Assembly: GCA_964641085.1 (NCBI GenBank)
Contig: CAZXJS010000011.1
Span: 39,588 to 63,587 of the forward strand
DNA length: 24,000 nt
Reading direction: 5' to 3'
DNA from: an uncultured Prevotellamassilia sp.
GTDB taxonomy: Bacteria; Bacteroidota; Bacteroidia; Bacteroidales; Bacteroidaceae
Of this stretch, positions 10,256-11,416 are shown piece by piece. The position numbers and the translations under genes are program-made. Positions within the stretch are counted from its first letter, which is position 1; every line of letters begins with the position of its first letter. Under the pieces are notes generated by a model. That model saw only the letters and a list, made by a program, of their open reading frames with translations, did no database searches and was not told the DNA's origin.

Positions 10256-11416
10256 TTATAGCAGCAGGTTCCAAAAGCTTTGGGGCAGGTGAACGTTGGG
10301 GACGTCCACGGCGTCGGCGAAGAGCGGGGCGATGTCCTGCGGCGAAAAGCCTGCGATTCCGCACCCGATGGGTGTGACGAGGAATGTCTCTGCGGTGTGC
10401 TTCTTCGCGTATTCGATAAACTTATCTACGTAGGGCTTAATGGTCTCTACGCCGCCTTGCATGGTGGGTATGGCGTAGCTCTGCCCTTGCGGGCCGTCTC
10501 CGTTGCCGAGCACGGCGCCGAAGTGGAGGTGTGCCGCGCGGGCAGCGCCGCCGCCGTGCATGCCGGCCAGGTTGCTGCCAAAGACAAAGATTTCTCCCGG
10601 GCGGAGAGACTCGATGAGGTTGGGCGTAATGCGGTTTGAAAAGTCTCTGTTCATATCTTTTCTTCGTGTAAAGAGGCGTTTCAGGAAAGAGCGCTTCTCT
10701 GCCTGCGGCGCGCGCTTGGGTGGCAGTATGGGGCGCCTCTCTGCCTGTAGCTCGCGCTTGGGCTTAACGGAGTAGCATACCCCGGACTCGGCCATGCTGG
10801 GCGCTTCGTAGTAGGCTTTGAAGTATGGGCGTACGACGTTCTCGAGCAGCTTGTGGTATTGCTGCGTTACGGCGGAGGGCGTGATGCCGAGCTCCGCGGC
10901 AACTTCCTTCCCCTTGTACCCGTCGATAAGCATCATTTGGAGGATGAGCGACTGGCGGCTGTCGCGCCCCAGCATGTTAGAACAAATTTCGTCCACCGTG
11001 TTTCGGAAATCCGCTGTGAAGTTGTTGTCGGGTAGGTCGAAGCTGAGGTTGGCCGTTTCGAGGCGTTCCTCGAAGGGTTGCAGGCGGTGCTCCTTGTTGA
11101 AAGCTTTGAGGCGGTCGAGCAGGACGTATCGGAAACCGTTTATCATCCACGTCTTGAGCGAGGTGTCGGGTCTGCGGTCTTCCAGCTGGCGGAAGTCGTG
11201 CCGTGCCAGGGCGAGGTAGTATTCGTGGGCAATGCTGTAGAAGTCCAGTCCCGCCTTCCCCTCCAGCTCGTAGCGCTTATTATATATATGGTAGGCTATG
11301 CGGCAGGTGGCGTAGAAGAAGTCGCGCGTGGTCTCGGGGTCGCGTTCCCGCAGCTTGCGGATGATTTCCTCCTCGAGGGCTTTAGGGTCGGGTTCTGTGG
11401 GTTTAGTATTCTTCAT
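10256..11416 (-). CDS. Sigma-70-family-like HTH protein fused to a C-terminal macrodomain-like glycine-loop module
   Basis: 386 aa. Residues 1-~205 (10802-11416): region-2-like SLKTWMINGFRYVLLDRLKAF and region-4 HTH RQSLILQMMLIDGYKGKEVAAELGITPSAVTQQYHKLL. Basic linker with an internal duplication. Residues 255-386 (10256-10654): EIFVFGSNLAGMHGGGAARAAHLHFG, GQSYAIPT, FLVTPIGCGIAGFSPQDIAPLF. The function of the C-terminal module is inferred from motif resemblance only. Confidence 0.7.
   Translation of the reverse strand: MKNTKPTEPDPKALEEEIIRKLRERDPETTRDFFYATCRIAYHIYNKRYELEGKAGLDFYSIAHEYYLALARHDFRQLEDRRPDTSLKTWMINGFRYVLLDRLKAFNKEHRLQPFEERLETANLSFDLPDNNFTADFRNTVDEICSNMLGRDSRQSLILQMMLIDGYKGKEVAAELGITPSAVTQQYHKLLENVVRPYFKAYYEAPSMAESGVCYSVKPKRELQAERRPILPPKRAPQAEKRSFLKRLFTRRKDMNRDFSNRITPNLIESLRPGEIFVFGSNLAGMHGGGAARAAHLHFGAVLGNGDGPQGQSYAIPTMQGGVETIKPYVDKFIEYAKKHTAETFLVTPIGCGIAGFSPQDIAPLFADAVDVPNVHLPQSFWNLLL

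Follow-up and report, generated by a model that had tools for sequence, protein, structure and literature searches.

A gene on the minus strand of the 24,000-nt stretch of an uncultured Prevotellamassilia sp. analysed here (contig CAZXJS010000011.1, positions 39,588 to 63,587; hereafter the window) encodes one polypeptide made of three parts: a sigma-like domain, a linker and a module predicted to have the macrodomain fold. The open reading frame (ORF), of 386 amino acids (aa) plus the stop codon, begins with ATG and occupies positions 10256-11416. The fusion is old and Prevotellaceae-wide; the junction has been plastic in evolution, yet the fusion itself is not recent, because the full-length architecture is kept throughout the family while the linker varies. 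The reading preferred here, to which we give about an even chance, is that the protein is a sigma factor of the extracytoplasmic function (ECF) type in which a macrodomain-like, ADP-ribose-family sensor or processing domain replaces a separate anti-sigma factor.

The reality of the fusion is established by its recurrence. When 5.8 billion proteins were searched, the fusion protein had 5,586 matches, and almost all of the best 120 clusters were full length (316-405 aa, 55-100% identity, 86-100% coverage). One protein homologue, P0002, is 82% identical. By scanning species-representative genomes, full-length orthologues at 41-67% identity were located in ~60 genomes, the nearest being rumen Prevotella metagenome-assembled genomes (65-67%). 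The full-length protein is encoded by isolates such as Hallella multisaccharivorax DSM 17128, Leyella stercorea DSM 18206, Segatella copri strains, S. sinensis, Prevotella pectinovora and Prevotella sp. MA2016. The ORF and the peptides quoted in the original prediction, which was made from the DNA letters alone, were found in the translation, and its question of whether orthologues are fused or split was answered in favour of fusion: the whole domain combination recurs in more than 120 protein clusters and ~60 genomes. Two separate genes in related genomes, brought together here by an assembly error, had been named as the outcome that would overturn the prediction, and the isolates show the opposite. 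Nor are these features due to chance, given the profile scores of both parts and the recurrence of the architecture. Across the orthologues the module is 67-84% identical, compared with ~60% for the whole protein; the sigma part is also conserved, less so than the module. The parts of the gene are as follows.

10256-11416, minus strand: whole fusion gene, supported by the ORF list, full-length homologue clusters and ~60 genomic orthologues
11087-11386, minus strand: sigma2-like domain, residues ~11-110, including the region 2.3/2.4-like segment SLKTWMINGFRYVLLDRLK (TIGR02937, Sigma70_ECF, AlphaFold2, Foldseek)
11027-11086, minus strand: predicted flexible sigma2-sigma4 linker, residues ~111-130, variable in the alignment
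10808-11026, minus strand: sigma4-like domain with helix-turn-helix (HTH), residues ~131-203 (Sigma70_r4_2 and Sigma70_r4 on 153-192)
10655-10807, minus strand: predicted disordered interdomain linker, residues 204-254, with no conserved sequence
10259-10654, minus strand: macrodomain-like module, residues 255-386, 132 aa (NF049995, phrog_2072, AlphaFold2, Foldseek against the PDB, BFVD)
10541-10582, minus strand: loop 1 of the module, FGSNLAGMHGGGAA, residues 279-292, in which N282-x4-H287-GGG has the spacing of N40-x4-H45-GGG in SARS-CoV-2 Mac1
10346-10372, minus strand: loop 2 of the module, PIGCGIAGF, residues 349-357, parallel to RIGCGLD of TARG1 and SAGIFG of Mac1

The sigma-like domain and the macrodomain-like module

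Assignment of the first ~205 aa to the sigma-70/ECF type, as originally proposed, is borne out by profiles and by structure comparison. Residues 40-193 match TIGR02937, the sigma70-ECF superfamily, with an E value of 6e-10, and the Pfam Sigma70_ECF profile is passed by both the N-terminal part (24.0 bits) and the whole protein (21.8 bits; gathering score 21.1). PHROG 1740, a phage sigma factor family, matches the N-terminal part at 1e-9, and Sigma70_r4_2 is found below its threshold (22.7 bits versus 25.7, E 8e-5). The peptides SLKTWMINGFRYVLLDRLKAF and GYKGKEVAAELGITPSAVTQQYHKLL, on which the assignment had been based, lie at residues 86-106 and 167-192. The AlphaFold2 model of the fusion, built on 53 orthologues, is helical and confident (predicted local distance difference test, pLDDT, ~90) for residues 11-110 and 131-203 and disordered, with pLDDT below 50, at 115-130 and 205-255. 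Comparison of this model with the PDB by Foldseek retrieved sigma factors only, led by SigL, sigmaE, AlgU, SigH, SigW and SigK, over ~190 columns at probability 0.99-1.0, including ECF sigmas in complex with RNA polymerase (RNAP); the TM-scores were low because the two sigma domains differ in orientation. The conserved W90...D101-R102 segment falls at the position of region 2.3/2.4. Model and comparison agree on sigma2 and sigma4 only, joined by a short linker and lacking sigma1.1 and sigma3, which is the make-up of ECF (group 4) sigmas. Residues 11-203 would thus comprise sigma2 and sigma4, contrary to the objection that the N-terminal part might fail to match these regions, and this part is best described as a divergent ECF-like sigma2-sigma4 protein, a putative sigma factor. 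No anti-sigma gene is adjacent, the flanking genes being those of an Hsp20 and a von Willebrand factor type A (vWA) protein, and the dedicated regulator that characterizes the ECF family would be represented by the fused 180-aa C-terminal extension.

The module is a clear member of a named family. NF049995 matches residues 276-381 (10274-10591) with 141 bits in the whole protein and 144 bits in the module alone (cut-off 45, E 1.8e-42), and phrog_2072 matches the module with an E value of 1.5e-35. The peptides EIFVFGSNLAGMHGGGAARAAHLHFG (residues 275-300) and FLVTPIGCGIAGFSPQDIAPLF (345-366), from which a macrodomain-like nature had been proposed, are present. Modelled separately, the module reaches pLDDT 88 and a predicted TM-score (pTM) of 0.86, and each of the best 50 Foldseek matches in the PDB is a macrodomain or a serine hydrolase that was designed on a macrodomain scaffold, among them OiMacroD, Poa1p, SARS-CoV-2 Mac1, TTHA0132, YmdB, MacroD2, AF1521, DarG and TARG1. 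The TM-scores are 0.5-0.67 overall, with TARG1 at 0.67 (probability 0.97) and TTHA0132 at probability 0.99. In BFVD, family members come first, including segments of crAss-like phage polyvalent proteins, followed by named matches that are mostly classical viral Macro domains. Searches of PDB sequences gave noise for the module alone and OMPLA-type noise, with no macrodomain, for its profile. The models thus place the module in the macrodomain fold, of three layers (alpha/beta/alpha) with a mixed beta-sheet, and a fold devoid of a nucleotide pocket, the outcome that would have contradicted the original proposal, is not what the structural matches indicate.

The two glycine loops line up on the ligand loops of TARG1 and Mac1 as had been proposed, in an hhalign comparison without statistical significance. 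Conservation is concentrated in them: most positions of N282-x4-H287-G288-G289-G290 and of I350-G-C-G-I-A-G-F357 are invariant or at least 90% conserved in the module family, N282 is invariant among the 53 fusion orthologues, and S281, G285, H287, G289, Y314, P317, T348, G351, C352 and A355 are among the residues invariant in a 23-sequence sample of the family. In TARG1 the catalytic residues are Lys K84 and Asp D125. When the TARG1 sequence, verified against 4j5q, was compared with the module, hhalign paired IGCGIA(GF) with IGCGLD at a probability of only 19%, placing D125 on Ala355, and manual alignment paired YAIPTM with YLITKK, so that Lys84 falls on Thr318 or Met319 and no Lys is available. 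The catalytic Lys and Asp of the TARG1/DarG type are absent by these low-confidence alignments, and therefore the chemistry of the module would not be of TARG1 type. It would presumably bind, and perhaps hydrolyse, an ADP-ribose-containing ligand or an ADP-ribosylated protein. Two other assignments were considered and rejected: ARPP, the cysteine-bearing domain of Iyer et al., examined on account of the invariant Cys, has a different fold (beta-meander plus barrel), and a SLOG/LOG-type Rossmannoid, suggested by the GGG and GxG motifs, is at odds with structural matches that are macrodomains in every case.

The linker and its internal methionine

The linker between the two domains varies from 26 to 53 aa across the 53 orthologues, its sequence is not conserved, and that of the window is the longest because of a private duplication. 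Two features are located in it.

10682-10762, no strand assigned: in-frame 14-codon tandem duplication (PKRELQAERR / PKRAPQAEKR), found by repeat search
10652-10672, minus strand: codon of the internal Met255 (ATG 10654-10652) with A-rich upstream sequence, a candidate internal translation start suggested by orthologue comparison

The repeat had been given as 10691-10720 versus 10733-10762. It is real and its spacing of 42 nt stands, while its extent is larger: the copies 10682-10720 and 10724-10762 comprise 39 nt at 79% identity. The duplication is private to this genome and P0002 does not have it. Hence, of the recently remodelled junction that had been deduced from the repeat, the 14-codon duplication is indeed recent whereas the fusion is old and family-wide. 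Similarly, the linker is basic in this protein, as had been noted, but this character is again private to the genome and not a property of the orthologues.

Met255 is encoded by the ATG at 10654, as originally read. Of the 60 orthologous ORFs taken from genomes, 56 have a Met 17-23 aa ahead of EIFVFGS; in 30 of 53 orthologues it occupies the same alignment column, and in 49 of 53 it falls within four columns. Translation starts of Bacteroidetes are marked by A-rich leaders rather than by Shine-Dalgarno pairing. The A fraction in the 18 nt upstream of the junction Met is 0.44, as against 0.46 at true starts and 0.26 upstream of the other in-frame Met codons (n=781), the rest of the linker having 26% A; the difference between the junction Met and other in-frame Met codons gave a Mann-Whitney p of 3e-20, a value inflated by relatedness. 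Stand-alone 132-aa genes of the module begin at exactly the equivalent of Met255, and the exact 132-aa protein has been called on 9 contigs, the short ones (L002-L006) being similar over ~50 nt upstream. These sequence features suggest that a free 132-aa module may be co-produced from the internal Met.

A natural deletion derivative was found on ENA ERZ1024292 scaffold_28203 (L001:2850-3399), where the sigma part is lost and an intact 132-aa module gene remains. The intergenic blocks are still there, and so is a piece of the sigma N-terminus, IIQRLHKRYPQITRGYFCVVC, now frame-shifted, which leads straight into the module gene. As judged from this sequence, the module has evidently been kept after the loss of the sigma part. 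A gene for a WYL/WCX-domain regulator lies 1.6 kb upstream of the module gene (L001:425-1396), a linkage that may be coincidental; regulators of the WYL type serve as alternative sensors in the ARG-centred systems of Iyer et al.

The same observations bear on an explanation that differs from the preferred one and that we consider unlikely: the locus would be a sigma gene and a macro-like gene running together for want of a stop codon, the working enzyme being mainly the free 132-aa module and the tethered copy exerting no allosteric effect, so that the fusion would be no more than a record of two functions that go together. A junction Met kept in 56 of 60 orthologues despite an unconserved linker, an upstream A content like that of true starts and unlike that of other Met codons, and stand-alone genes starting at this very residue are in favour of such an explanation. 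So is the L001 deletion, which removed the sigma part and left the promoter region and an intact module gene, and so is the lack of interdomain contact in the AlphaFold2 model. Moreover, where the module has other N-terminal partners, a Met at the junction is rarer (13 of 66). Were the free module all that mattered, however, a stop codon in the linker would be neutral and frequent, and the explanation is weakened because the frame is open through this unconserved sequence in ~60 species, with only locus L073 looking disrupted. The Met is also missing in 4 of the 60 orthologues and in 5 of 13 sigma-type representatives, and the A-rich codons could simply encode a hinge rich in Lys, Asn and Glu.

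Control region, gene neighbourhood and module family

The fusion gene is separated from the divergent vWA gene by a 114-bp intergenic region (11417-11530), within which three blocks are conserved between species with only 41-67% identity in their proteins. The elements of this region and the partner gene are as follows.

11424-11431, minus strand: TAATTTTG, 7 nt upstream of the fusion ATG, which fits the Bacteroidetes housekeeping-sigma -7 box TAnnTTTG
11448-11486, plus strand: bipartite motif directed toward the vWA gene, a candidate cognate promoter, with CTTAAT (11448-11453), a 16-nt spacer, CTTTTAAAAG (11470-11479) and then GATTAGAG
11469-11502, minus strand: mirror half-site directed toward the fusion gene, read from the sequence, with CTTAAA (11502-11497), a 16-nt spacer and the shared palindromic centre TCTTTTAAAAGA (11480-11469)
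11531-12160, plus strand: divergent partner gene for a 209-aa, predicted cytoplasmic vWA protein with an intact MIDAS motif, DESGSM (Pfam VWA, E 1.9e-8)

A T-run and a box like TAnnTTTG, which we take to be the Bacteroides housekeeping promoter -7 consensus, are conserved at the fusion ATG in most of 41 aligned intergenic regions. A generic E. coli-type promoter scan of the region found nothing, as expected for Bacteroidetes. The bipartite motif, with the consensus gCTTAATTTTTtc-N8-TCTTtaAAgaGATAAA, is present in fixed register in 41 of 42 divergent loci, its median distance to the downstream vWA ATG being 83 nt, and CTTAAT-N16/17-CTTTTAA occurs only once in the window. Where the genes are apart, the vWA gene keeps the motif and the fusion gene has a sense copy of its own, with the TAnnTTTG box nearer to its ATG; such sense copies precede the fusion gene in 17 loci. 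In the closest relatives (L007-L012 and L016) the fusion gene has a clear sense copy, and the sense and antisense copies overlap in the palindromic centre. One arm plus the centre, in sense orientation upstream of each separated gene, favours a -35/-10 promoter over a dimeric operator. CTTAAT-N16/17-CTTTTAA is thus a candidate for the cognate, autoregulated promoter of the fused sigma.

The vWA gene is the sole syntenic neighbour; neither this conserved partner nor the wider ADP-ribose gene context figured in the original prediction. Its product shows no signal peptide on inspection, 55 of 86 loci carry a homologue (57-70% identity), and in 42 of 61 fusion loci the gene is divergent and adjacent at 84-333 bp; in loci of the S. 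copri type it lies 2-4 kb downstream. In five other Bacteroidales (L078, L079, L083, L084, L085) vWA and module form one polypeptide of 365-420 aa. In one of these (L079:4016-7006) the vWA-module fusion is preceded by an NrtR-like gene (NUDIX 8e-23, NrtR_WHD 2e-17) and followed by an ADP-ribosylglycohydrolase (ARH) gene (7e-35); L085 is likewise flanked by an NrtR-like and an ARH gene, and L078, L083 and L084 have the NrtR-like gene and no ARH match. L083 also has an extra free module gene. In Segatella copri N016-9 (L020:7172-8002) the ARH gene begins 5 nt past the sigma-module stop codon, an operon-like arrangement, and ARH genes occur in nine more related fusion loci, ten in all; Nudix genes were found in L019, L040, L058 and L081. 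In L020 an ordinary ECF sigma/anti-sigma pair is encoded just upstream, on the other strand (4806-5780). Some contigs bearing the Prevotella-type locus (L021, L025, L027, L028, L073) are titled Lachnospiraceae, Escherichia coli or Oscillospiraceae, probably as a result of 'cleanbin' binning errors.

The other neighbours in the window, Hsp20, lactonase and YjbR among them, are not conserved. The Hsp20/alpha-crystallin gene (9697-10134, plus strand), for which synteny is lacking elsewhere, is convergent with the fusion gene, and between the two lies a G+C-rich hairpin with a T-run at 10180-10192. PADLOC gave no defence-system match for the fusion, vWA or Hsp20 proteins. A prophage or mobile-island origin was considered and found to have no evidence, given housekeeping neighbours, unremarkable composition and synteny restricted to vWA. 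The window has 62% G+C, rising to 71% around 8.4-9.4 kb, which is high for Prevotellaceae, and this high G+C produces many long spurious antisense ORFs, such as those opposite the 1,364-aa GH2 beta-galactosidase at 15486-19580.

The module itself reaches far beyond this family. In 1.84 billion representatives searched exhaustively with HMMER it was found in 4,756 clusters at 50% identity, and in the top 150 representatives it is C-terminal (66), N-terminal (52), alone (23), internal (7) or in tandem (2). Pfam partners, determined for 148 of these 150, include ADP_ribosyl_GH (18), Sigma70_r4_2 (7), PARG_cat_microb (6), DUF1810 (6), PTP-SAK-type phosphatases (3), NADAR (1) and NUDIX (1); by BLASTP, 13 of the 150 are sigma-type and 7 vWA-type fusions. 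The stand-alone occurrence in phage and bacterial genomes that had been stated in the original prediction was borne out by 324 phage records and many 130-aa bacterial genes. The phage records are mostly from N4-like phages and usually describe a hypothetical protein of ~120 aa, occasionally annotated as an O-acetyl-ADP-ribose deacetylase. One stand-alone bacterial module gene (L086:5800-6408) comes right after a small gene for an XRE-type HTH protein (GQIIKARRKELGLTQNTLALL) and may be another pairing of regulator and module. The crAss-like phages, which infect Bacteroidales, carry the module within giant polyvalent proteins (A0A7M1RUN7 of phage cr50_1 and A0A7M1RZQ7 of phage cr116_1), one annotated ART-PolyVal in BFVD, and these carriers hint at an ADP-ribosylation arms race in this ecosystem.

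The company kept by the module gives some credit to a hydrolase tethered to RNAP, an explanation that we rate as quite improbable. The sigma part would deliver an ADP-ribosylhydrolase that strips ADP-ribose from polymerase subunits, from sigma or from nascent RNA ends modified by phage enzymes of the Alt/ModA type. The Asn-x4-His-Gly-Gly-Gly and G-x-G-I-x-G loops are kept as in active hydrolases of the MacroD/Mac1 type, the partners of the module elsewhere are hydrolases (ARH, PARG, NADAR, Nudix), the crAss-like phage polyvalent proteins combine it with ADP-ribosyltransferase domains, and a long flexible linker would suit a tethered enzyme. Nevertheless, in other Bacteroidales the module is paired with vWA and no sigma, so RNAP is not a general target; promoter-like motifs before the vWA and fusion genes point to a gene-specific sigma and not to a general passenger; an alternative sigma holds only a small share of the polymerase; and RNAP is not known to be modified in these hosts.

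There is little likelihood that the N-terminal part is instead a sigma-derived HTH protein acting as a repressor or activator on the intergenic inverted repeat, with the macro-like domain as ligand sensor in the manner of NrtR. Consistent with it are the marginal sigma scores and the missing Pfam region-2 match, the HTH proteins of MarR/TrfB type returned by the PDB profile search, the near-symmetric, operator-like element of the closest relatives, with two CTTAAT arms around a palindrome, and the NrtR-like genes that fill the role of regulator in vWA-module loci. It is opposed by the ~190-residue alignment over sigma2 and sigma4 to RNAP-bound ECF sigmas at probability ~1, by W90...D101-R102 at the region 2.3/2.4 position, and by the separated genes, each with one arm and the centre in sense and at -35/-10 spacing. 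An artefact, whether a missed stop, a frameshift or an assembly chimera of two genes, can practically be dismissed: the 132-aa part is listed alone in some public gene calls and L073 has the sigma4 region in another frame than the module, but the same full-length architecture in more than 120 independent clusters and ~60 genomes, isolates included, rules out assembly error as the source of the fusion. L073 itself (L073:6000-6748), with its sigma4-coding region out of frame with a 168-aa module ORF, reflects either pseudogene formation by a frameshift or an error in sequencing.

Proposed mechanism and relation to known systems

If the fusion protein is indeed an ECF-type sigma with a built-in sensor, the circuit could operate as follows. 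Basal expression of the fusion gene would be provided by the housekeeping TAnnTTTG promoter. The module would bind, and perhaps hydrolyse, an ADP-ribose-containing ligand or an ADP-ribosylated protein, produced for example by phage or toxin ADP-ribosyltransferases, and ligand binding would alter sigma activity, in line with the effect of the C-terminal extensions in sigmas of the ECF41/42 type. The holoenzyme would then fire CTTAAT...CTTTTAA promoters, yielding more vWA protein, more of the fusion itself and, where it is in the operon, ARH. The vWA protein and the macro-like domain would act jointly on ADP-ribosylated targets, and free 132-aa module would possibly also be translated from the conserved internal Met. 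In its widest form, which we regard as doubtful, the proposal is that of the first sigma set directly by an ADP-ribose-type signal: in a Prevotellaceae-wide circuit that includes Segatella copri, a sigma with a built-in macrodomain-like sensor or enzyme, and a free copy of the latter from an internal start, would respond to ADP-ribosylation stress (e.g. from crAss-like phage or toxin transferases) by directing vWA, and in places ARH, to repair or defence through a private CTTAAT-N16/17-CTTTTAA promoter.

Several results weigh against an ECF-type sigma with its own ADP-ribose-family sensor. The sequence statistics are marginal for both domain assignments. On the sigma side, TIGR02937 scores 39.0 bits and does not reach its cut-off of 42.9, the fusion protein has no match to Pfam Sigma70_r2, and the full-length profile, searched against PDB chain sequences, retrieves only generic HTH proteins. 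On the side of the module, Pfam Macro (PF01661) gives 18.1 bits, below the gathering score of 22, and only over profile positions 71-116, the region of loop 2, the PARG-like TIGR02452 being weaker still. The Foldseek E-values are at least 0.036, with probabilities of 0.44-0.99 over the 50 matches and at least 0.95 for the best, and hhalign of the module profile with the single TARG1 and Mac1 sequences places the loops as expected at probabilities of at most 19%, that is without significance. No contact between module and sigma domains is predicted by AlphaFold2 (pTM 0.39), and therefore an autoinhibitory interface is unsupported. As to the circuit, the fusion gene's own sense copy of the motif is degenerate in the window and in most divergent loci, the motif could be an operator for another factor, and no ARH or Nudix homologue was detected in the 24-kb window by tblastn. 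Lastly, that the fusion protein binds a ligand, hydrolyses it, binds RNAP and uses the promoter is what we infer.

Should the module read or erase ADP-ribose marks, the NAD/ADP-ribose chemistry of conflict (phage or toxin transferases, sirtuin products) would be tied directly to promoter selection, in a bacterial family that is dominant in the rumen and in many human guts and that includes Segatella copri, an abundant human gut species. The system is compact, comprising two genes and a single control region of 114 bp in which a promoter is predicted, and is present in cultivable strains, which makes every step testable. Sensor-bearing sigmas and ADP-ribose-sensing repressors are known; the joining of a sigma to a macrodomain-fold module is undescribed in the literature that could be searched, where no paper on such a fusion was found. 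The fusion and the vWA gene that accompanies it point to a connection, so far not described, between ADP-ribose signalling and the initiation of transcription.

Among sigma factors the nearest parallels are the ECF groups, 19 in the account of Casas-Pastor et al. (2021, PMC7826278), with fused C-terminal regulatory extensions, such as SnoaL-like domains in ECF41/56/294/295, TPR in ECF42, a Cys-rich domain in ECF238 and DUF1835 in ECF264. The fusion shares with them a minimal sigma2-sigma4 core, the lack of an adjacent anti-sigma gene, a linker-borne C-terminal domain of more than 50 aa and a promoter-like motif upstream of its own locus. In contrast, an extension of macrodomain fold is not among the types in the main text of that work, the divergent core falls short of the TIGR02937 cut-off, the conserved partner gene encodes a cytoplasmic vWA protein, and no intramolecular contact is predicted.

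As a set of parts, the locus closely resembles the ARG-centred ADP-ribose deconjugation systems predicted to counter ADP-ribosylation (Iyer, Burroughs, Anantharaman and Aravind 2022, PMC9503650, section 3.8). These comprise one-component regulators of Nudix- or WYL-HTH type, Macro or NADAR accessories, phosphatases and a vWA 'Mg2+-dependent peptide-binding chaperone', and were reported from actinobacteria, planctomycetes and proteobacteria, not from Bacteroidales. In the window a single protein combines the regulator (sigma) with the macro-like domain, and the vWA gene lies next to the gene that encodes it. The output, however, would be a sigma and not an HTH repressor, the sensor would be macro-like instead of Nudix or WYL, and the ARG/ARH core is absent from the window and from most Prevotellaceae loci. 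With NrtR, the Nudix-related ADP-ribose-responsive regulator, the fusion has in common a domain of nucleotide-derivative-binding enzyme fold joined to a DNA-binding domain, but the fold is macro and not Nudix, the domain order is reversed, and sigma2/sigma4 stand in place of the winged helix.

The module, in turn, shares with macrodomains (TARG1/OARD1, Poa1p, MacroD/YmdB/OiMacroD, Mac1, DarG) the predicted fold, a loop 1 of Mac1 type and a TARG1-like loop 2. It differs from typical macrodomains in being shorter (~125 aa), in remaining below the Pfam Macro gathering score, and in the invariant Cys352 and His287, which are specific to its family. That family, NCBIfam NF049995 ('A1S_2505 family phage non-structural protein', PHROG 2072, N4 gp14-like), consists mostly of members that stand alone or are fused to ADP-ribose enzymes, the fusion to sigma accounting for 13 of the top 150 representatives. 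The recurring partnership of the module with vWA, ARH, PARG, NADAR, Nudix and NrtR-like proteins thus offers a first functional context for the uncharacterised NF049995/phrog_2072 family.

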